DNA of 64,000 bases from NCBI GenBank assembly GCA_043740415.1, contig JAYUCJ010000152.1, positions 2,758 to 66,757 on the forward strand, read 5' to 3'. The stretch's first letter is position 1. Each line of letters begins with the position of its first letter. Under the pieces are notes generated by a model. That model was given only the letters and a program-made list of their open reading frames with translations, did no database searches and was not told where the DNA came from. Below are positions 4,208 to 62,147 of this stretch, in pieces. Position numbers and translations under genes: made by a program. The DNA comes from Polaromonas sp. GTDB taxonomy: Bacteria; Pseudomonadota; Gammaproteobacteria; Burkholderiales; Burkholderiaceae_C.

Positions 4208-4267
4208 CCGTTCGGACTGAGCCTGTCGAAGTCATCAAGAACCCTTCGACAGGCTCAGGGCGAACGG
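4208..4267. repeat. GC-rich palindromic element (family PAL: CCGTTCGnnCTGAGCCTGTCGAAG...CTTCGACAGGCTCAGnGCGAACGG)
   Basis: Near-perfect inverted repeat ccgttcggactgagcctgtcgaag / cccttcgacaggctcagggcgaacgg, between pyrF and the EamA gene. Confidence 0.85.
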
Positions 4268-5200: not shown

Positions 5201-5250
5201 CCGTTCGCCCTGAGCTTGTCGAAGGGTTTCGACAAGCTCAACCCGAACGG
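5201..5250. repeat. PAL palindromic element
   Basis: ccgttcgccctgagcttgtcgaagggtttcgacaagctcaacccgaacgg, immediately after the EamA stop codon. Confidence 0.85.
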
Positions 5251-5253
5251 AAA

Positions 5254-6126
5254 TTATTTGGACACTAAAGACGCCTTAGCCAAACACAAATCCGCCCACG
5301 CTTTGGCTTTGTCCGCTGGGTTGCGCAGCAAATTGGCGGGTGAATAGGTCACGACAACGGGAATGCCTTGGTAGCTGTGAACGGTGCCGCGCAGCTGACC
5401 CAGCGGTGGCACGGGGTTGCTGACAGTTTGCGCCAGCAACGCCTGCGCGGCGTAGCGTCCCATCGCCAAAATCATTTTCGGACGCGTCAATGCCACTTGG
5501 CGGCGTAAAAAAGTCTCGCACTGCGCCAGCTCTTGCGCGCCCGTGCTTTGCCCTTCAGTGCGGCATTTGACGGCGGGGGTTAATGTGACTTTTTGGGTAA
5601 CTTGTTCTGTGCTTAAACCCATGGCTTTGAGCATATTGCCCAGTAAGACACCCTCATCGCCCGTGAACGGTGCACCGGCGGCTTCGTCAGACTCGGTCGG
5701 TGGGTCGCCGACGATGAACCAATCAGCTTGCTGCGCAGATGCTGGCGTGCCAAAAACAATGCCATTTCGACCTGCGCACAGCTGGCAGGCTTGGCAGGTT
5801 TGCGCGGTTTGCTGCAGGGTTGGCCAATCCATCTCTTGCAGGCCTGCGGGCATGGCTTGCAAAACCAGCTCGGGACGATCGATTTTCGGTGAATTTGGTT
5901 TAACAACCGCATTTTGAGGCTGTTTTAGGGGTTTAGCCGGCGTATTTATTGCCTGAAGTGCTATTTTATTTATAGCAATTTGTGGTTTTTCAACAACTTG
6001 CGCGGTCTGAGAGCTAGCGGCAACAACGGCAACTTCATCCAGAACGTAAACCGTTTCAGGCTGCCAAACGGTGATGCCCATTTCTTGCAGCATGGCGCGT
6101 TGGCGGGTGTCTAAAGCTAGGCTCAT
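5254..6126 (-). CDS. Uracil-DNA glycosylase, family 4
   Basis: C-terminal domain has CQLC..., FIVGDPPTESDEAAGAPFTGDEGVLLGNML and VVTYSPANLLR. The N-terminal extension contains an in-frame R45 copy. Confidence 0.8.
   Translation of the reverse strand: MSLALDTRQRAMLQEMGITVWQPETVYVLDEVAVVAASSQTAQVVEKPQIAINKIALQAINTPAKPLKQPQNAVVKPNSPKIDRPELVLQAMPAGLQEMDWPTLQQTAQTCQACQLCAGRNGIVFGTPASAQQADWFIVGDPPTESDEAAGAPFTGDEGVLLGNMLKAMGLSTEQVTQKVTLTPAVKCRTEGQSTGAQELAQCETFLRRQVALTRPKMILAMGRYAAQALLAQTVSNPVPPLGQLRGTVHSYQGIPVVVTYSPANLLRNPADKAKAWADLCLAKASLVSK
5932..5980 (+). repeat. R45 repeat, inside the udg CDS (in frame)
   Basis: tttagccggcgtatttattgcctgaagtgctattttatttatagcaatt. Read on the minus strand as ...IAINKIALQAINTPAKP... 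Confidence 0.8.
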
Positions 6127-6136
6127 AGATGCAAAC

Positions 6137-6655
6137 TCATAGCTTCAGACTCATCACAATCGCGTCTTCACGGCCATTGGCTTTGGGACCTTTGGGGTAG
6201 TAATCTTGCCGAACGCTCACCAGTTTGAAGCCCTGCGCTTTGTAGACTTGCAGCGCCCGCTCATTGTTAGCGCGCACCTCTAGCCACAGCCACGCGGCAC
6301 CCTGCCCGCGCGACCAGACGGCCAGCGCATCCAACATCAGCTTCGCCCAGCCTTGGCGTTGGTTGGGCTCAGCGACTGTGATGTTCAGCAAATGCACCTC
6401 TTCAAAGCCTTTCATGGCGATGAAATAGCCCAAAATGTCTGCCTTAGTTGAAGAATCTGTCGTTAAACCTGCAGTTAAGACCTGCATTTGGTAGCCGGTT
6501 TGAATCGAATCTTCGAAATTAGCGCGGCTCCACGGGTGTGGGTAGACGGCGTTTTCGATGTCGAGGACGCAGTCAAGCCAATCTGCCGTCAAAGGCTGAA
6601 ATTCAACCTCTGGCTGGTTTACCAAAGGAGGTATAGGCTTCAAAATCGCGTTCAT
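6137..6655 (-). CDS. rimI: Ribosomal-protein-alanine N-acetyltransferase (GNAT)
   Basis: GNAT core HLLNITVAEPNQRQGWAKLMLDAL. Overlaps the stop of upstream tsaB by 4 nt (conserved tsaB-rimI pairing). Confidence 0.8.
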   Translation of the reverse strand: MNAILKPIPPLVNQPEVEFQPLTADWLDCVLDIENAVYPHPWSRANFEDSIQTGYQMQVLTAGLTTDSSTKADILGYFIAMKGFEEVHLLNITVAEPNQRQGWAKLMLDALAVWSRGQGAAWLWLEVRANNERALQVYKAQGFKLVSVRQDYYPKGPKANGREDAIVMSLKL

Positions 6656-53711: not shown

Positions 53712-55193
53712 TTGAGGATGTCAACGCAGATGTTATTTTTTCGCCCCGAAGTCATGCAGTCACAAGCCAGCCAATGGCTAGGCGTTGTACGCTTGCACAG
53801 ACCCTTGTCGTTCGGCTTGATCACTGCAACAGCCATCGGCGTTGCACTTTTGTGCATCACATTTGCAACGTGGGGCGAAGTCAACCGTAAATCACGCATT
53901 TCTGGCTTGCTCGTTTCTTCGTTAGGCAGCCTGAATATAGCCGCACCGCTGGCCGGTGTGTTGGTCGAAAGCCGGATTTCTGAAGGCCAAACCGTACAAG
54001 CGGGTGACGTGCTGTTCGTACTCAACACCGAGCGCCAAAGCACGGCGGGCGACACCAACGCCCTGACTCTGATACACATCGAAGCCCGCAAGCAAACCCT
54101 GAACACCGAGCGCGGCCTGCGCCAGCTGCAAACCAGTCAACGCAGCCAAGTGCTAGAAGACCGCATTCGCACGCTGAATGCCGAGCTATTGCGCCTAGAC
54201 GAAGAGCAAAACCTGCTAGAAAACCGCATCACCCTGTCCAAGAAGACACTTGCACGCAGCCAAAAATTAGCTTCCGAGGGCTTTTTGTCTGAAGCTCAAG
54301 TACAAACCAACCAAGAAGAACTCATAGACCTCAACAGCCGCCAACAAGCCCAAGCCCGCAGCAAACTCAGCACCCAGCGCGACCTACGCACACTCACTGG
54401 CGAAGCCGAAGGTCTAGCCACCCAACTCAAAGCAGATTTAAACCAGCTAGCGCGCAATGTGTCGCAGCTCAACCAAGAAGCCACAGAAACCACCGCCCGC
54501 AAAAGCACCCTCATCACCGCGCCCTACGCTGGCACCATCACCGCCTTTAACCTGCAAAACGGCCAAGCCGTGCAGGCGGGGCAAACCTTGGCGACGTTGG
54601 TGCGTACAGAAACCACATCTCCGATGCTCACCACAGAAAAAGTCAGGTTGAAAATCTCCGGCTACAAGATGACGACGTTACTTTCGACGCCAAAAAATAC
54701 CGTTCGCCCTGAGCCTAACATTCCATCCGTTCGCCCTGAGCCTGTCGAAGGGTTCACCGCCAAAGCAGAGCCACAAGCCCCGCAATCCCTCCAAGCCCAC
54801 CTCTACGCCCCCAGCCGCACCGCCGGCTTCCTCAAACCCGGCCAGTCCGTCTACATGCGCTACGCCGCCTACCCCTACCAAAAGTTCGGCCTACAAACCG
54901 GCCACATCACCGCCATATCCGCCACCCCCTTCTCCGCCAGCGAGCTACCCCCCAACATCGCCCAGCAGCTCATCGCGCAATCTGGCAGCAACGAAGCCCT
55001 CTTTCGCATCAACGTGCGGCTAGACCAGCAAACGATTACCAGCTACGGCGAGCCGCTGCAACTCAAAGCAGGGCTAACGCTAGAGGCCGATGTGCTGCAA
55101 GAACGCAGAAAGATATGGGAATGGGTGCTAGAGCCGCTGCTTGCGGCTAAGGCGCAATTGAAGGTTTTGAACTCGAATCCAAATAAAAATTAA
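53712..55193 (+). CDS. HlyD/CvaA-family membrane-fusion (adaptor) protein for peptide export
   Basis: FRPEVMQSQASQWLGVVRL + TM + lipoyl-like hairpin (ISEGQTVQAGDVLFVL) + long coiled coil + beta-barrel (APYAGTITAFNL..GQAVQAGQTLATLV). Carries an in-frame PAL element. Confidence 0.85.
   Translation: MRMSTQMLFFRPEVMQSQASQWLGVVRLHRPLSFGLITATAIGVALLCITFATWGEVNRKSRISGLLVSSLGSLNIAAPLAGVLVESRISEGQTVQAGDVLFVLNTERQSTAGDTNALTLIHIEARKQTLNTERGLRQLQTSQRSQVLEDRIRTLNAELLRLDEEQNLLENRITLSKKTLARSQKLASEGFLSEAQVQTNQEELIDLNSRQQAQARSKLSTQRDLRTLTGEAEGLATQLKADLNQLARNVSQLNQEATETTARKSTLITAPYAGTITAFNLQNGQAVQAGQTLATLVRTETTSPMLTTEKVRLKISGYKMTTLLSTPKNTVRPEPNIPSVRPEPVEGFTAKAEPQAPQSLQAHLYAPSRTAGFLKPGQSVYMRYAAYPYQKFGLQTGHITAISATPFSASELPPNIAQQLIAQSGSNEALFRINVRLDQQTITSYGEPLQLKAGLTLEADVLQERRKIWEWVLEPLLAAKAQLKVLNSNPNKN
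54700..54755 (+). repeat. PAL-family element (tandem left arms) in frame within hlyD
   Basis: ccgttcgccctgagcctaacattccatccgttcgccctgagcctgtcgaagggttc. Read as ...TVRPEPNIPSVRPEPVEGF... Confidence 0.8.
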
Positions 55194-55200
55194 TAAAAGC

Positions 55201-55698
55201 ATGAAGTATTTTCAAAAAATCCGCACCATCGTATTTTCAACTGAATTGCCTTTATGGAAATATTGCTTTCTGACATTTTGGATCTTTATCAGCGTATCGG
55301 TTATAGCCAATATTTTTATAAAAACATTAGCAGTATTTTTAACTATAAATTATGGACCTGAAGAAATTAAAACTAATTTATCGGTGATTGAATCAGTTGT
55401 TGTTAGCATAATCGTACCGTTTATAGAAACACTCCTTCTTGCGGTGTTTTTAATATTATTTAAAATAATATTAAAAAATAATATGTTTATAGCAATCATC
55501 ATTGCAATAGTTGCCGGATTGACACATTCAAAACAAGATTGGACACATTTTTTTATATACGCGGCTATGTTTTATTTATTTGCACTATTTTATTTAACAA
55601 GGTCAAAAATTTCTTTTGCCAATGGATTTATAGCTGCTTTTGTTCCACATCTGTTAAACAATTCAATGATTGCTCTATTTGCATATTATGATATTTAA
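55201..55698 (+). CDS. CPBP/Abi-like intramembrane protein (putative immunity), paralogue 1
   Basis: 165 aa, about 5 TM. PFIETLLLA (degenerate EExxxR), GLTHS, and FVPHLLNN (HxxxN). Ends ...YYDI like paralogue 2. 7-nt gap after the hlyD stop. Confidence 0.65.
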   Translation: MKYFQKIRTIVFSTELPLWKYCFLTFWIFISVSVIANIFIKTLAVFLTINYGPEEIKTNLSVIESVVVSIIVPFIETLLLAVFLILFKIILKNNMFIAIIIAIVAGLTHSKQDWTHFFIYAAMFYLFALFYLTRSKISFANGFIAAFVPHLLNNSMIALFAYYDI

Positions 55699-55773
55699 AT
55701 CTAAATTATAAATTCTGTTTTTACGCATTTGGCAGTAAATTTTTTATAAATGCGGTATTTAGAAAGAGTAGTT

Positions 55774-56031
55774 ATGAAAGAATTATCGATTGAAGATTTA
55801 GCAGAAGTCGCCGGTGGAGGAGCATTGACCACAGCTGGGAAATGGATGCTAAACCAACTTGCTGGCTGGGGATTTACGGAAGCAGTTGTCGAAGGCGTTA
55901 AATATGTAATGGACAATGAGGGCGGCTGGTTTACTCCTGGCGCTGCCAACGACGGTGGCGGTTCGTCTCCGTACGTTTGCGATGCTAACGGCTACTGCTA
56001 TACCAATAATCAGTATAGCTGCTCTGCATAA
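55774..56031 (+). CDS. Double-glycine-leader peptide 1 (class II microcin/bacteriocin-like precursor)
   Basis: 85 aa. The 15-aa leader MKELSIEDLAEVAGG is spaced like the ColV leader MRTLTLNELDSVSGG. About 70-aa Gly/Trp-rich core ending PYVCDANGYCYTNNQYSCSA. RBS-like aaagag upstream. Confidence 0.75.
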   Translation: MKELSIEDLAEVAGGGALTTAGKWMLNQLAGWGFTEAVVEGVKYVMDNEGGWFTPGAANDGGGSSPYVCDANGYCYTNNQYSCSA

Positions 56032-56051
56032 TAAATTTGCTTAAATAAAAA

Positions 56052-56075
56052 TCCAAAGATGTGCACATCTTTGGA
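56052..56075 (+). terminator. Perfect 12-bp-arm hairpin after the peptide 1 gene (no T-tract)
   Basis: tccaaagatgtg/cacatctttgga, 20 nt after the stop codon. Confidence 0.35.
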
Positions 56076-56099
56076 TAATACAACTTTAATATTACCAAT

Positions 56100-56327
56100 A
56101 TGCATAGAATGATTAGTGGAGTACTGTCGTTTATTAGAAGCAGTCAAACATCACCGTACAATACTTCTAATGCTATACAAACGGCAGTCTTACAGGCATA
56201 CGCAGCGCGCGTGAAACTAAGCAATGATACACATGGCGATACCGCACTACACATCAATCAACATATTCACAAACCAGCTCTCTCTGAAAACAGTGACTGC
56301 AAGCGCTTATGGCAGCAATATAGTTGA
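56100..56327 (+). CDS. Hypothetical 75-aa ORF
   Basis: Open frame in an AT-rich region. No motif, no TM, no obvious RBS. Confidence 0.25.
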   Translation: MHRMISGVLSFIRSSQTSPYNTSNAIQTAVLQAYAARVKLSNDTHGDTALHINQHIHKPALSENSDCKRLWQQYS

Positions 56328-56382
56328 AAAACCTTGTGAGATAATATTGAATGAGCTTTTTAAGCATGCAAATATGTCCATG

Positions 56383-56426
56383 GCTAACATATTATTTGCC
56401 TGAGCAGCTATTTTAATAATAGCAAT
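56383..56426 (+). repeat. Degenerate R45 copy
   Basis: gctaacatattatttgcctgagcagctattttaataatagcaat. Confidence 0.55.
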
Positions 56427-56465
56427 ATACTAAAACAAGTACACATTAAATATTCTAAAATTACT

Positions 56466-57386
56466 ATGCGAATTTTAAATTTTTTATACATTACTTCTGC
56501 ATTAACGGTATTGGTTGGTTGTGTATCACCCATACAAACACCAGAAGAGGTTAGTAGAAATAATGACTTATTAGCTACTCAGATATTGCAATCAAAAAGC
56601 AAGAGCAGTCAAACTATACAAAATAAATCTCTCGATAATACTCCAACCATACAAAGGGTATCAGGTATTTACTTTGGATTAGCACTCGATGGTGTATCGC
56701 CAGCTTTTGAGGGTGATATTAAGCGAGTACAAAATTTATTTTTTGACGAAATTGCTAAGGGTCCTAGCTTGCTACTCAGCAATTCCGAAACAAATGAACA
56801 AATATACCCACGTGCGGATTTCAGAACCATCCCAGAGGCAGCAAAGGCTGTAGGGAATTACCGTGTTGAGCCCGATATCGGGTTAACAACACCGGGCCTA
56901 AAAGTGGTAGTTGTTTCATCACACGGCAGAGAAAAGCACTTGCGACTACGTGTAGGAAAAAATCGGATCCAAGGCGAAGTAAGTGATGCTTACCTCTTGA
57001 AACTACTTGCTGATATTGATGGCTCAAGCAAAACTCCTACGCTGTTGATTATTTCAGCCTGCCACTCGGGCTCTTTTATTCCACTTCTTGCTGCGCCCAA
57101 TAGAATTATCATGACGGCAGCAGCCAGTGATAAATTATCATTTGGCTGTGGCACAGATTCTAAAAATACGGCATTTACTGAACACTTACTAGATCAAAAC
57201 ATTGACACGAAATTATCATTGCACAATCTTTTTGATAGTGCTTTAAAACGTATTTCCGATTTTGAAATAAAAATGAAAATCGCAACCTCATCACCACAAA
57301 TATCTGTGGGTGCAAATATGCAGAGATTGTATGAAGCACGCATTGAAGAGTGGGATAAAATTTTAACCAAAGAAAGAAAAGATTAA
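56466..57386 (+). CDS. Lipoprotein, clan-CD cysteine peptidase (C13/legumain-like family)
   Basis: Lipobox LTVLVGC. His-Gly ... Ala-Cys dyad context VVVVSSHG...LLIISACHSGSFIPLL, followed by IMTAAASDKLSFGC as in bacterial C13-family proteins. Confidence 0.65.
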   Translation: MRILNFLYITSALTVLVGCVSPIQTPEEVSRNNDLLATQILQSKSKSSQTIQNKSLDNTPTIQRVSGIYFGLALDGVSPAFEGDIKRVQNLFFDEIAKGPSLLLSNSETNEQIYPRADFRTIPEAAKAVGNYRVEPDIGLTTPGLKVVVVSSHGREKHLRLRVGKNRIQGEVSDAYLLKLLADIDGSSKTPTLLIISACHSGSFIPLLAAPNRIIMTAAASDKLSFGCGTDSKNTAFTEHLLDQNIDTKLSLHNLFDSALKRISDFEIKMKIATSSPQISVGANMQRLYEARIEEWDKILTKERKD

Positions 57387-57396
57387 ATACAAATAG

Positions 57397-57645
57397 TTAA
57401 TTCCAAATTACTGTCCTATAAATGGCGGCAATACTCAATACCGAAATATACCAACCCCTGTCATTGCATCAATAGCGCAAGTATCCGCAAGAGCCCGAAA
57501 CGTGATGCCTAGTAATGATGCTAACGGTGATACCGCGCCATACTGCAACCAATACTCTCACAAAGCAGTTGCGTCTAAAAACGGTGACCGCAACGGTTTA
57601 GGTCAGCAATACAGTTGGGGAACTTGGTGGGATGATACGAATTGA
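57397..57645 (+). pseudogene. Start-less paralogue of GG-leader peptide 2
   Basis: The frame opens right after a TAG: LIPNYCPINGG-NTQYRNIPTPVIASIAQVSARARNVMPSNDANGDTAPYCNQYSHKAVASKNGDRNGLGQQYSWGTWWDDTN. The core is homologous to 58371-58631, but there is no ATG/GTG/TTG or RBS before the GG. Confidence 0.6.
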
Positions 57646-57668
57646 GTTTTTATGTGCATAAATGTGCC

Positions 57669-57714
57669 ACTAGCCGGCGTATTTATTGCCTAGACAGCTA
57701 TATTATTTATAGCA
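57669..57714 (+). repeat. R45 repeat, 24 nt after the peptide-2 paralogue
   Basis: actagccggcgtatttattgcctagacagctatattatttatagca. Confidence 0.85.
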
Positions 57715-57742
57715 AAAATTTCATCTAATATCAAATAAAAAC

Positions 57743-58237
57743 ATGCAGAGTATCGCAAAAATTTACGGTTTTTTAATTTCTAACAAAATTTCATTCCCAA
57801 AATATATCGGCATTGTATTTTTAATAGAATTATTGTCAGCCATATTTCTTGCTTTACTTGTTTTTGTTTTCATTGACATCTTTGATTTAAATTACGCCGC
57901 ATTTCCTGAGCACGATTTATCTTGGGGAACATTTTGGAAGGGAGTCGTTTTTGCACCTACTCTTGAAACCTATTTATTGATTTTAACTTTGCATATTTTG
58001 CGAAGTTTCGACATTCAAGGTTTAAAACTTGCAAGTATTGCTGCCATATTCTGGGGCGCATTACATGGGGTTCAAAGTTGGCCTTGGTTTTTTGCACCTG
58101 CATGGATATTTTTCATCTATTCAACGGCTTACGAAACATGGCGTTTGACATCTTTTAAGAAAGCTTATTTTGCCGCTGCTATTCCGCATGCTCTGAATAA
58201 TTTGGTAGCCCTGTTCGCTAATAGCTACGACATCTAA
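57743..58237 (+). CDS. CPBP/Abi-like intramembrane protein (putative immunity), paralogue 2
   Basis: 164 aa. PTLETYLLI, GALHGV, IPHALNN. Ends ...SYDI. The stop TAA overlaps an ATG (TAATG) that begins a relic of the ABC gene. Confidence 0.65.
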   Translation: MQSIAKIYGFLISNKISFPKYIGIVFLIELLSAIFLALLVFVFIDIFDLNYAAFPEHDLSWGTFWKGVVFAPTLETYLLILTLHILRSFDIQGLKLASIAAIFWGALHGVQSWPWFFAPAWIFFIYSTAYETWRLTSFKKAYFAAAIPHALNNLVALFANSYDI

Positions 58238-58313
58238 TGCGCGTCATCATTCAATCCGAAGCCAGCGAATGCGCGCTGGCTAGTTTGGCTATGGTTTGCA
58301 GTGCGCATGGGCT
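58237..58313 (+). pseudogene. 77-nt duplicate of the 5' end of the C39-ABC exporter gene
   Basis: atgcgcgtcatcattcaatccgaagccagcgaatgcgcgctggctagtttggctatggtttgcagtgcgcatgggct is identical to 59649-59725 except for one base. Homology stops abruptly afterwards. Confidence 0.85.
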
Positions 58314-58370
58314 ATCAGTCAATAAGAGAGTTTTTAAGAAAATAATCTTTATTAATCAAAGGAGGATTTT

Positions 58371-58631
58371 ATGGAGCAACTTAATAAATCAACATTGTCA
58401 TTAATATTGGGGGGCAATAACGTCCCGGGAAAAGTGCCGGCAGCTGTACTCGCATCAATGACGCAAGTATCCAGTAGAGTAAGTGATACATTACGGATTA
58501 TGAATACGCATGACGATGCCGCGCCATACTGCAATCAATATTTACACGTGGCTATTGCTCCAAAAAACGGTGACCGCAACGCCTTGGGGCAGCAATATAG
58601 CTGGGGCACTTGGTGGGATGATACACATTGA
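58371..58631 (+). CDS. Double-glycine-leader peptide 2 (class II microcin/bacteriocin-like precursor)
   Basis: 86 aa. Strong RBS aaaggagg 7 nt upstream. The 15-aa leader MEQLNKSTLSLILGG has hydrophobic residues at -4, -7 and -12. Core ends GQQYSWGTWWDDTH. Confidence 0.75.
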   Translation: MEQLNKSTLSLILGGNNVPGKVPAAVLASMTQVSSRVSDTLRIMNTHDDAAPYCNQYLHVAIAPKNGDRNALGQQYSWGTWWDDTH

Positions 58632-58654
58632 GTTTTTAGAGGCAAGAATATACC

Positions 58655-58700
58655 GTTAGCCGACGTATTTATTGCCTAATATGCTATGAACTTTAATTAT
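58655..58700 (+). repeat. R45 repeat (3' half diverged), 24 nt after peptide 2
   Basis: gttagccgacgtatttattgcctaatatgctatgaactttaattat. Confidence 0.65.
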
Positions 58701-58797
58701 TTTATTTTGTGATGTCACATATTTTTCCACTTGCATTAGCCGCGTAACGATGGTAAATTACTGTCATTAAACACAGTAGTCAACCAAGGTAATTCAC

Positions 58798-59649
58798 ATG
58801 AAAATTCTTCCAACCGATTTCGATGGTCAATCTATCCGCCGCGTGTATGACGAGGACACTGAAATGTGGTGGTTTTCTGTGGTGGACGTGGTGCAGGTGC
58901 TGACGCAGCAGGCTGATGACTTGACGGCTCGCAAGTACTGGAATCAGCTGAAACGCAGGCTTGAGAATGAAGGCAGCCAACTGGTGACAGACTGTCACCA
59001 GTTGAAAATGACAGCGGCAGATGGCAAACAACGCTTAACAGATGCTGCAAGCGCCGAAACTTTGCTGCGTCTCGTTCAATCCGTCCCCAGCCCCAAAGCT
59101 GAACCCATCAAACTGTGGCTAGCTAAAACTGGCTATGAGCGTATGCAAGAAATGGCAGACCCTGCGCTGTCTTTGAATCGTGCCCGCGAAACGTGGGAGC
59201 AACATGGGCGTAGCGACAAATGGATTCAGCAACGGATGACGGGACAGGAAACCCGCAACAAATTGACTGACTATTGGCGTGAGCACGATGTCAAACCTGG
59301 TCAAGAGTTTGCTATTTTGACCAATATCATCCACCAAGCTTGGACAGGCGTAAGCGTCAAAGAGCACAAAACTGCTAAGAATCTGACTAGCCATAACCTG
59401 CGCGACCACATGACTGAAGCAGAGCTTATTTTTACAGCTCTGGCTGAGCTATCTACGCGGCAGATTGCAGAGAACCGCCATGCAACGGGTTTACCCGAAA
59501 ATGCCACGGCCGCCAAAGTGGGTGGCAGTATTGCACGCCAAGCACGTCAGCAGCTAGAAAGCGAAACGAGCAAATCAGTGGTGACTAGCAGCAACTACTT
59601 GCCGCCAAAGAATACTAAGCTTCTCAAGCCCCAAAAACCGTCACCTTAA
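58798..59649 (+). CDS. Bro-N domain protein (DinD / phage antirepressor-like)
   Basis: FDGQSIRRVYDEDTEMWWFSVVDVVQVLT is a Bro-N signature. 283 aa. The stop overlaps the ABC start (TAATG). Confidence 0.7.
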   Translation: MKILPTDFDGQSIRRVYDEDTEMWWFSVVDVVQVLTQQADDLTARKYWNQLKRRLENEGSQLVTDCHQLKMTAADGKQRLTDAASAETLLRLVQSVPSPKAEPIKLWLAKTGYERMQEMADPALSLNRARETWEQHGRSDKWIQQRMTGQETRNKLTDYWREHDVKPGQEFAILTNIIHQAWTGVSVKEHKTAKNLTSHNLRDHMTEAELIFTALAELSTRQIAENRHATGLPENATAAKVGGSIARQARQQLESETSKSVVTSSNYLPPKNTKLLKPQKPSP

Positions 59650-61763
59650 TGCGCATCATCATTCAATCCGAAGCCAGCGAATGCGCGCTGGCTAGTTTGG
59701 CTATGGTTTGCAGTGCGCATGGGCTGCAGGTGGATTTGGCGGATTTGCGGCGGCGGTTTGTGGTGTCTATCAAGGGCGCTACCATGCAGCAGCTGGTGCA
59801 GCATGCGGATGGGCTGAACTTTAGCTCACGCCCGCTGCGGTTGGAGCTGGATGAGCTTAGCCAGCTTCAACGGCCCTGCATTTTGCACTGGGGGCTGAAC
59901 CATTTTGTGGTGTTGGTCAAGGTGCGTAAGAACCACATCGTGATTTACGACCCTGCGGTGGGTGAGCGGCGGGTGGTGATGGAAGATGTGTCGCGGCACT
60001 TCACGGGTATTGCGCTGGAATTAACGCCGAATGCCAGTTTTGAGCCTAGCGACCAGCGACAGCGGGTGTCGCTTGCGGCGCTGACTGGTAAGGTGCTAGG
60101 GCTGAAGCGTTCGATGTTTCAGATATTTGCATTGGCCATGGTGTTGCAGCTTTTTGCCATTGCCGCACCGCTGTTGAACCAGCTGGTGGTGGACGATGCG
60201 ATTGCGACGTATGACAAAGATTTACTCTCGGTGCTGATTGTTGGTTTTGCCTTGCTGATGTTGATTCAGACTTTGCTGGGCTTGGCGCGTAGCTGGATGG
60301 TGATGGCGCTGAGCATGTCGCTTAGCCTGCAGTGGACGAGCAATGTGTTTAGCCACCTGCTGAAGCTGCCGATTGAGTATTTTGAAAAACGGCATTTGGG
60401 CGATGTGGTGTCGCGCTTTGGGTCTGTCAATACGATTCAAAAAACGCTGACAAGCAGCTTGATTGAAGCGGTGCTGGACGGGTTGATGAGCGTTGCCGCA
60501 CTGGGCATGATGCTGCTATATTCGCCGCTTTTGGCCGCCGTGGTAGTGGGCGCGGTAGTTATCTATGCGCTTTTACGCTGGGCGATGTACAAACCTTTTC
60601 GTGATGCGAGTGCGGAGCGTTTAGTGGTAGCTGCTAAAGAGAATACGCATTTTCTAGAGTCGCTTCGCGCCATCACGCCGCTGAAACTCTTTGGGCGTGA
60701 AAACGAGCGCCGCGCACGCTGGCAAAACCTGCTGATTGATGTACAAAACCGCGACATCAAAACCGCCAAAATGGGCATCGCGTTCAGCACGGCAAACACG
60801 TTTATTTCTGGCATTGAAAACTTGGTGGTACTTTGGTTGGGGGCAGGTTTGGCAATGCAAAGCTCGCCACAAGGACAAAGCAGCTTCACCATTGGTATGC
60901 TGTTTGCCTTCATCAGCTACAAAGGGCAGTTTTCTAGCCGCATGGCGACCTTGATTAACTACTTTGTTGAAATCAAAATGCTGGGCTTGCATGCAGAGCG
61001 TTTGGCAGATATTGCGCTGACTGAGCCTGAAAAAGACGCCGTACCTGACAACACGTTGCAGCATCTTGAACCCAAAATTGAACTCAAAAACGTAAGTTTT
61101 CGCTACGGGGAAGGTGAGCCTTGGCTACTGAAAGAAACCAACGTGGTGCTCAACGCCGGGGAAAGCGTGGCGATTGTGGGGGTGAGTGGCTGCGGTAAGA
61201 CGACTTTGTTGAAGCTTATTTTGGGTTTGCAGCAAGTGGTGGAAGGGGAAATTTTGTACGGTGGCATCCCCGTCAAACAACTGGGATTACAAAATTACCG
61301 CAAATTGATTGGTACGGTGATGCAAGAAGATGTTTTACTGGCTGGCAGCATTGCAGAAAATATCAGCTTTTTTGATGTTCACTTTGACATGGAGCGGGTG
61401 CAAACATGTGGTCAACTCGCGGCAGTGCACGACGACATTGCGCGTATGCCTATGGGCTACCAAACTTTGGTGGGGGATATGGGTTCTGCTTTGTCGGGCG
61501 GGCAAAAACAACGTGTTTTGCTAGCCCGCGCTTTGTACAAACAGCCGAAAGTGCTGGCTTTGGATGAAGCGACCAGCCATTTAGACATCACCAATGAGAG
61601 ACGAGTGACACAAACTTTGACGCAAATGAGCTTGACCCGCATCATTGTGGCGCACAGGCCCGAGACGATTGCTGCGGCGCAGCGGGTGATTGCTTTAGAG
61701 AATGGAAAAATAATTGAGTTGCGACCGGCAGCAGCGTTTGAGAGCTTACAAGAAGCGGCATAA
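59649..61763 (+). CDS. Peptidase-C39-domain ABC transporter (PCAT, CvaB-like bacteriocin/microcin exporter)
   Basis: N-terminal C39 domain QSEASECALASLAMVCSAHG (catalytic Cys) ...HFVVL. 6-TM domain. Walker A GVSGCGKTT, signature LSGGQKQR, Walker B VLALDEATSHLD. Confidence 0.9.
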   Translation: MRIIIQSEASECALASLAMVCSAHGLQVDLADLRRRFVVSIKGATMQQLVQHADGLNFSSRPLRLELDELSQLQRPCILHWGLNHFVVLVKVRKNHIVIYDPAVGERRVVMEDVSRHFTGIALELTPNASFEPSDQRQRVSLAALTGKVLGLKRSMFQIFALAMVLQLFAIAAPLLNQLVVDDAIATYDKDLLSVLIVGFALLMLIQTLLGLARSWMVMALSMSLSLQWTSNVFSHLLKLPIEYFEKRHLGDVVSRFGSVNTIQKTLTSSLIEAVLDGLMSVAALGMMLLYSPLLAAVVVGAVVIYALLRWAMYKPFRDASAERLVVAAKENTHFLESLRAITPLKLFGRENERRARWQNLLIDVQNRDIKTAKMGIAFSTANTFISGIENLVVLWLGAGLAMQSSPQGQSSFTIGMLFAFISYKGQFSSRMATLINYFVEIKMLGLHAERLADIALTEPEKDAVPDNTLQHLEPKIELKNVSFRYGEGEPWLLKETNVVLNAGESVAIVGVSGCGKTTLLKLILGLQQVVEGEILYGGIPVKQLGLQNYRKLIGTVMQEDVLLAGSIAENISFFDVHFDMERVQTCGQLAAVHDDIARMPMGYQTLVGDMGSALSGGQKQRVLLARALYKQPKVLALDEATSHLDITNERRVTQTLTQMSLTRIIVAHRPETIAAAQRVIALENGKIIELRPAAAFESLQEAA

Positions 61764-61767
61764 AAAA

Positions 61768-62147
61768 TGTGAAGCTCGCCGATACGCCGGATTTTGTGCG
61801 GCACAACCCGAAAGCTGCGCCGTGACCGTCATTCATCTTGGCCTTGGGTCACCCCAAGGCTCGGTGCTACCTACCCGCCATCTCTCTTAGCGAACCGCCA
61901 AGTGAGACGATTCGGCGAACCTAGTCACCTCTGGATGGCCTATTTGGTATTGCTGCGCGTAGAGATTGCCCGTTTCACCCGCTATGAGTTTCCCCATAGC
62001 GACTCGTCTCTGTTGCTCTGATCCTCACCTTATATCTTTCGACTTTCAGTGGGCAGCCGTTAGCTGCTACGCTGTCCTATGCAGTCCGGACGTTCCTCCA
62101 GTGCTTGGTTTCCCAAATTGCACCAGCGACGGCCTAGCGAGCTTCAC
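61768..62147 (-). ncRNA. rnpB: RNase P RNA, bacterial type A
   Basis: The reverse complement reads GAAGCTCGCTAGG...GGAGGAACGTCCGGACTGCATAGGACAG...CAGAGCAACAGAGAC...GGTGAAACGG...CAAATAGGCC...AGATGAATGACGGTCAC...ACAAAATCCGGCGTATCGGCGAGCTTCAC. This matches the P1/P4 and universally conserved blocks of E. coli M1 RNA. Confidence 0.9.

Follow-up and report, generated by a model that had tools for sequence, protein, structure and literature searches.

We analyzed a 64,000-nucleotide stretch of DNA from Polaromonas sp. (GenBank assembly GCA_043740415.1, contig JAYUCJ010000152.1, positions 2,758 to 66,757 of the forward strand; hereafter the window), concentrating on an island at positions 53712–61763 that carries several copies of a small peptide gene, here called peptide 2. 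The listing of open reading frames (ORFs), together with Pfam and NCBIfam scans of the 64-kb window, indicated that an adaptor gene and a C39 exporter gene bracket the island. In order, the island contains genes for an HlyD-family adaptor, a CPBP-like protein, a double-glycine (GG)-leader peptide unrelated to peptide 2, a decayed third copy of peptide 2 and a C13 lipoprotein, followed by a disabled copy of peptide 2, a second CPBP-like protein, an exporter fragment, the intact peptide-2 gene, a Bro-N protein and the C39 exporter; the island features described below lie on the plus strand unless stated otherwise. Three copies of the peptide-2 family are thus present: the intact gene (58371–58631), the disabled, or upstream, copy (57387–57645) and the decayed copy (56100–56360). 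Sequence comparisons suggest that the region is probably a strain-variable island of the class II microcin type and that its upstream peptide-2 copy is a recently inactivated allele.

The intact gene encodes the leader MEQLNKSTLSLILGG followed by a 71-residue core. As a first-pass annotation of this DNA had described, the ORF at 58371–58631 yields this translation and is preceded by a strong ribosome-binding site (RBS): the Shine–Dalgarno sequence AAAGGAGG occupies 58358–58365, with the ATG 5 nucleotides downstream, so that the gene and its RBS together span 58358–58631. The leader, 15 residues long and ending in GG, carries hydrophobic residues at positions −4 (I), −7 (L), −12 (L) and −15 (M), the pattern of GG leaders (about 15–25 residues) exported by C39 transporters. 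Across 11 contigs with differing upstream cassettes, the gene showed zero to two synonymous differences, and the encoded protein was always identical.

The ORF list and alignments placed the open core frame of the upstream copy, 82 codons plus a TGA, at 57397–57645. This frame begins directly after a TAG (57394–57396), 10 nucleotides past the stop codon of the C13 gene (57384–57386), and no ATG, GTG or TTG precedes its GG motif, the first in-frame one being the GTG at 57502. The sequence thus confirmed the earlier description of an ORF that opens right after a TAG and has no canonical start. That description had also held that both the start and the leader were lost. The start is indeed missing, as ATA (57387) stands in place of the ATG or TTG of homologues. 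By contrast, comparison with homologues showed that the leader is still present, at 57387–57429, and has been frameshifted, not deleted. From the ATA to the end of the GG it measures 43 nucleotides, compared with 45 in homologues, and the 2-nucleotide deficit falls in codon 11, at about 57417/57418. The leader frame, which is also the C13 frame, reads IQIVNSKLLS straight after the C13 stop, and ..INGG then follows in the core frame, which the TAG closes 11 codons before the GG. Repairing both lesions would give the leader M-Q-I-V-N-S-K-L-L-S-x-I-N-G-G, in which all conserved family positions are matched; the copy would qualify as a GG-leader gene only after an ATA-to-ATG change and the addition of 2 nucleotides, and does not as it stands. 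In addition, Pro64, which is invariant in 16 out of 16 family clusters, is replaced by Ser in the disabled copy (ASKNGDRN).

These lesions were reproducible. The junction between the C13 gene and the peptide copy was 100% identical over 391–461 nucleotides in contigs L013, L014 and L017 and over 370 nucleotides in L018; these contigs come from at least three samples other than that of the window, L014 itself occurring in 5, and two different C13 alleles are found among them. Counting L001, to which the window itself belongs, the upstream sequence is identical in five contigs. Because the lesions are shared by contigs of other samples, the TAG is not an error, contrary to one objection that the first-pass annotation had anticipated. 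With its start and frame reproducibly disrupted relative to intact homologues, the upstream copy is probably a pseudogene.

Alignment of the intact and upstream copies from the GG to the stop codon was ungapped, with 68% nucleotide identity and 42 out of 73 residues identical, and it ran on past the stop codon into a shared R45 repeat. The similarity therefore extends beyond the C-terminal motif, and the proposal that the two copies share a core holds for the whole core. The number of synonymous substitutions per site (dS) between the two copies was approximately 1.3, and the ratio of nonsynonymous to synonymous substitution rates (dN/dS) was 0.21 overall and 0.07 in the C-terminal half. A dS of this size ruled out a recent duplication in place. 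Peptide plus R45 had been seen as the duplicated unit; the dS value instead points to anciently diverged alleles that were brought together in a recombining island. Judged by their substitution pattern, the two copies in the window are old alleles that were evidently constrained for nearly all of their divergence, which suggests that inactivation was recent.

The third copy (56100–56360), recognized through repeat family D2 and by alignment, is an old pseudogene. Its start persists, as does part of its leader, with SS replacing GG; 6 nucleotides are deleted, the conserved Cys is gone and TGA stands in place of two Trp codons. A degenerate R45 of its own follows it (56383–56425, located by alignment). 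The third copy is a much older wreck than the disabled copy.

Related contigs provided homologues of the upstream copy. In L016, a C13 homologue (70% amino acid identity over the last 44 residues) overlaps at its 3′ end with an intact, ATG-started peptide gene over 14 nucleotides, and the leader of this gene, MQTINSKLLPNISGG (protein P0017), is colinear at the DNA level with the ATA...IQIVNSKLLS stretch and 2-nucleotide gap of the window. Since L016 has the same junction and an intact leader, we ruled out that the leader was removed when recombination introduced the C13 gene. The disabled core is closest to P0005 of L011/L012 (57 out of 73 residues identical), which has the intact leader MEQLNKSKLSSIAGG. 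L009 shares with the window the CPBP-like gene, the exporter fragment and the intact peptide gene, but the full-length allele in its upstream slot is another one, which starts at TTG and has GGAG as its ribosome-binding site. The first-pass annotation had raised the question of which copy carries the leader in related strains; every homologue found elsewhere (L016, L011/L012 and L009) has an intact start and leader. Together with the ATA start, the 2-nucleotide leader deficit and the Pro-to-Ser replacement, these intact starts and leaders support the suggestion that the upstream copy is a decaying allele. L002/L003 have yet another upstream allele, other membrane-protein genes and a frameshifted 3′ remnant with R45.

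L009 and the window are identical from approximately position 57620 rightwards, with increasing divergence leftwards. This run comprised 45 concordant polymorphic sites (p<0.0002) and was the sole strongly significant tract among the 15 pairs compared, which locates a crossover within the 3′ end of the peptide gene, where the sequence is conserved. We also tested for gene conversion between the intact and upstream copies and found none: the longest shared run, of 12 sites (p=0.02, uncorrected), was no more than unrelated pairs show.

The repeat that follows the peptide genes, R45, consists of the 22-mer TAGCCGRCGTATTTATTGCCTA, usually followed by a GCTAT-N7-ATAGC hairpin. The 22-mer confirmed that R45 follows both the intact and the upstream copy at one spacing, as previously noted: a complete R45 lies at 57671–57713, after the upstream copy, and the R45 after the intact copy (58657–58685) has the 22-mer and an incomplete hairpin half. 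We found 12 copies of the 22-mer in the 64-kb window (positions 2311, 2764, 5934, 12726, 15643, 20117, 23272, 35229, 44539, 51042, 57671 and 58657), against zero expected, which identifies R45 as a genome-wide dispersed element. In L009, L011, L012, L016 and L002, the other contigs examined for it, R45 likewise lies 3′ of peptide genes of the family. It may serve as a terminator, a REP-like element or a recombination site. A promoter and terminator scan returned sites no more commonly than in shuffled sequence, and none at R45.

The adaptor gene at the left end of the island (53712–55193) encodes an HlyD-family periplasmic adaptor that matched Pfam HlyD_3 (4e-15) and HlyD_D23 (1e-12) as well as NCBIfam type_I_hlyD (2e-26, under the curated cut-off). 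A dispersed repeat, GTTCGCCCTGAGCCTGTCGAAGGG, sits in this ORF at approximately 54690–54760, where it is read in frame (..VRPEPVEG..) and leaves the ORF uninterrupted; L002 has the same insert, and the repeat occurs elsewhere in the window at 4242 and 20795 on the minus strand and at 5203 on the plus strand. At the right end, the peptidase-C39 ATP-binding cassette (ABC) exporter (PCAT; 59649–61763) matched Pfam C39 (7e-33), ABC_membrane (1e-40) and ABC_tran (8e-31), and the JGI names for members of its cluster were CvaB/MchF/RaxB. NCBIfam matches of the adaptor and exporter pair scored under the equivalog cut-offs. Directly 3′ of the exporter gene, on the minus strand, lies a bacterial class A RNase P RNA (61767–62145; 200 bits). 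A decarboxylase encoded in the neighborhood falls into a cluster, at 90% identity or more, with proteins of 'Burkholderiaceae bacterium' MAGs, and the host is thus probably an uncultured representative of this group.

Both CPBP-like genes are candidate immunity genes. The first (55201–55698) encodes a CPBP/Rce1-like membrane protein that scored 18.8 bits (E 0.002) against Pfam Rce1-like, for which the cut-off is 22.4 bits. The second (57743–58237), which is the same in L009, encodes a protein without a Pfam Rce1-like score that is paralogous to the first (32% identity, E 4e-14); the L002 allele of the second scored 21.3 bits (3e-4). The stop codon of the second gene and the exporter-fragment start overlap (TAATG). 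The fragment itself (58235–58313) is a 79-nucleotide duplicate of the exporter 5′ end covering the first 26 codons (repeat D3; Pfam C39 2e-4) and is 99% identical to 59647–59725. At 58314, it abuts the 3′-end remnant of a gene for a membrane protein of approximately 105 residues that is intact in L011. The fragment also begins a 55-codon ORF, within 58235–58404, that runs across the RBS and start of the intact peptide gene. The Bro-N domain protein (58798–59649; Pfam Bro-N 3e-8) is encoded between the intact peptide gene and the exporter gene, and this position, like the exporter-fragment arrangement, is kept in every related contig. The Bro-N stop codon overlaps the exporter start (TAATG), an arrangement that matches the overlap between the second CPBP-like gene and the exporter fragment.

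Peptide 1 (55774–56031), found in the ORF list and with a leader read from the sequence, is a GG-leader peptide unrelated to peptide 2 (MKELSIEDLAEVAGG...). It is one of several such peptides outside the peptide-2 family that differ between strains, the others lying at 55–345 in L009 and at 5999–6280 and 7118–7411 in L002. The C13 gene (56466–57386) encodes a legumain-like cysteine peptidase with a lipoprotein-type signal sequence (Pfam Peptidase_C13 1.7e-9), in which the His (SSHG) and Cys (SACHSGS) are kept. Most islands that encode members of the peptide-2 family have no C13 gene. Since legumains cleave after Asn and the family has an invariant KNGDRN motif, a processing or degradative link is nevertheless conceivable.

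With the intact peptide as the query, a search of 5.8 billion proteins returned 16 clusters, all metagenomic. A profile search of 1.84 billion representatives returned only nine proteins, none linking to a known family, and a scan of GTDB genomes returned one locus, L012. The sole match in a scan of JGI metagenomes, L015, was spurious and of high GC content. Family leaders have 13–15 residues, end in GG (GS in one member) and follow the pattern M-x3-N-x3-L-x2-I-x-GG. In the core, a variable front half containing one conserved Cys precedes an invariant C-terminus of 22 residues, which is rich in Trp and has the tail PKNGDRNxLGQQYSWGTWWDD. The core matched no Pfam or NCBIfam family and no PDB sequence, the leader gave nothing beyond weak matches to TIGR01847 (best E 0.016), and a literature search for the family motif likewise gave no match. 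The predicted structure was too poor to use (mean pLDDT 50, pTM 0.11). By these searches, the peptide-2 family appears to be unannotated and rare.

Class II microcins have recently been reported across bacteria, and their loci, exemplified by microcin V (cvaA-cvaB-cvaC-cvi), resemble the island in several respects (PMC12219008, PMC9746304). Both have a Gram-negative host, a 15-residue GG leader on a small peptide, a C39 ABC exporter with an adjacent HlyD-type adaptor, and small membrane-protein genes beside the peptide genes. They differ in that the island core fits no described family, its candidate immunity proteins are CPBP-like, the island includes Bro-N and C13 genes, it belongs to an uncultured bacterium from fresh water and the activity of its peptides is predicted. 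By analogy with C39 exporters and class II microcins (PMC12219008, PMC9746304), the intact peptide would be cut after the GG and exported by the exporter–adaptor pair, and the exported peptide would act on competitors. For the disabled copy, a leader and core in different frames and a TAG in the core frame would leave no product, and this copy is most likely neither translated nor exported. The intact CPBP-like gene 3′ of it has probably been retained for immunity, and the cell would then be an immune non-producer for that allele. The copies were probably assembled and exchanged by homologous recombination, with one junction mapped to the conserved 3′ coding end and R45. The family is thus best described as being of the class II microcin type yet undescribed, and the disabled copy itself appears to have met an ordinary fate.

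The pneumococcal blp bacteriocin immunity region offers a second comparison (PMC4860687). There, too, strain-variable genes for GG-leader peptides and CAAX or membrane immunity proteins lie by an exporter, CAAX/CPBP proteins are treated as bacteriocin immunity genes, recombination at shared sequences shuffles the alleles and cassettes, short repeats have been proposed as crossover sites, and non-functional genes are common. Unlike the island, blp has a Gram-positive host, quorum-sensing regulation and different peptide families; the shared crossover sequence of the island is the conserved 3′ coding end plus R45.

Several points weigh against a microcin-type island with a recently inactivated upstream copy. 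Antibacterial activity, an immunity role for the CPBP-like proteins and export by this particular transporter are features that we infer. The core frame of the disabled copy is open over 82 codons, and pairwise dN/dS is low even when this copy is involved (0.19–0.23, compared with 0.16–0.17 for intact-gene pairs), which means either that inactivation was recent or that the core is still under some selection. The branch-specific changes, 8 nonsynonymous and 2 synonymous in the disabled copy against 7 and 7 on the L011 branch, did not differ significantly and are confounded by mosaicism. Finally, the intact L016 homologue also has no strong RBS, so the missing RBS of the window copy is not in itself a lesion.

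Of the competing explanations, the one that survives best is that the family is not antibacterial and that its members are exported signals or have some other role, with the CPBP-like and C13 proteins processing the peptides instead of protecting against them. The invariant C-terminus of 22 residues might act as the ligand of a receptor, the core lacks Pfam, NCBIfam and PDB relatives, and one report (PMC7018657) counts pheromones, too, among the cargo of C39 exporters. However, strain-variable sets of unrelated GG-leader peptides and small membrane-protein genes are the typical layout of a bacteriocin locus (PMC4860687), and no sensor kinase or regulator adjoins the island among the window ORFs or in the related contigs. 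We regard this explanation as unlikely, though still deserving some weight; if it were true, the pseudogene reading would stand and the immune non-producer part would fall.

A further explanation is that the upstream copy serves as a silent donor cassette, a start-less archive that donates its core to the expressed gene through gene conversion or is revived by recombination with incoming DNA. Neisseria pilE/pilS is the model for such an arrangement, in which start-less silent copies lie near the expressed gene, with repeats nearby. The island resembles it in having a start-less paralogous copy near an expressed gene together with repeats; in addition, the core is open with a low dN/dS, every copy is bordered by a conserved 3′ coding end and an R45 repeat, and the recombination junction in the conserved 3′ end is real. 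However, an expressed locus that varies by copied tracts is not what we found. The expressed gene is invariant across the 11 contigs despite their differing upstream cassettes, and the 12-site run is the longest that the intact and upstream copies share; a switching system would predict the reverse of such invariance without a shared tract, and the earlier suggestion of a reservoir for recombinational switching is therefore unsupported. Moreover, the upstream copy is full length, its lesions are two point-type events without systematic 5′ truncation, it has lost the invariant Pro, and the third copy is plainly decaying. A donor role is accordingly improbable. Slightly less probable still is the specific proposal that the open upstream core is selected as an archived allele, which recombination at the 3′ end and R45, either inside the genome or with DNA of neighboring cells, would return or swap into service. 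Were it true, the cell could switch to another secreted toxin for which it already has the immunity gene.

Unconventional expression of the upstream core would require either a non-canonical start (ATT 57400, or ATA 57387 combined with a frameshift) or translational coupling to C13, and the product would act with or without being exported. The frame is open, and in L016 the overlap of the homologue with the C13 gene by 14 nucleotides and its lack of a strong RBS make translational coupling to C13 plausible for the upstream slot. However, the core frame offers no ATG, GTG or TTG before GTG 57502. Leader positions −12 and −15 have a role in C39 recognition, and a leader started at the ATT, of at most 10 residues, would lack the hydrophobic residues that the intact leader has there. 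Initiation at ATA combined with a programmed shift would demand two rare events, and we saw no slippery motif. With the core frame closed 11 codons before the GG, expression from ATT 57400, which the first-pass annotation had considered, is unlikely, and we give little credence to the explanation as a whole.

Modules of a different kind also bear some resemblance to the disabled copy. The orphan modules of contact-dependent inhibition (CDI) and Rhs systems are toxin pieces truncated at the 5′ end at a conserved junction and located downstream of the main gene. The island shares with these toxin–immunity modules a non-expressed toxin piece with an intact candidate immunity gene behind it, and a locus that recombination diversifies. 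Unlike them, the island copy lies upstream of the intact gene and is full length, including the frameshifted leader.

An error of sequencing or assembly affecting the start codon, the TAG or the 2-nucleotide gap is the least credible explanation and, barring a systematic error common to all the assemblies, can practically be dismissed: the source is a metagenome assembly and the samples hold several island variants, but the junction is identical in four contigs with two different C13 alleles.

A recently inactivated upstream allele in a class II microcin-type island would not change how such systems are thought to work. The analysis adds a rare GG-leader peptide family from uncultured freshwater bacteria, represented by 16 clusters among 5.8 billion proteins, and it maps a cassette-exchange crossover to a conserved 3′ gene end, which may be of use to microcin miners and for island annotation. 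Within one island, the three copies appear to represent three stages of a bacteriocin-type gene: working, just disabled and decayed.

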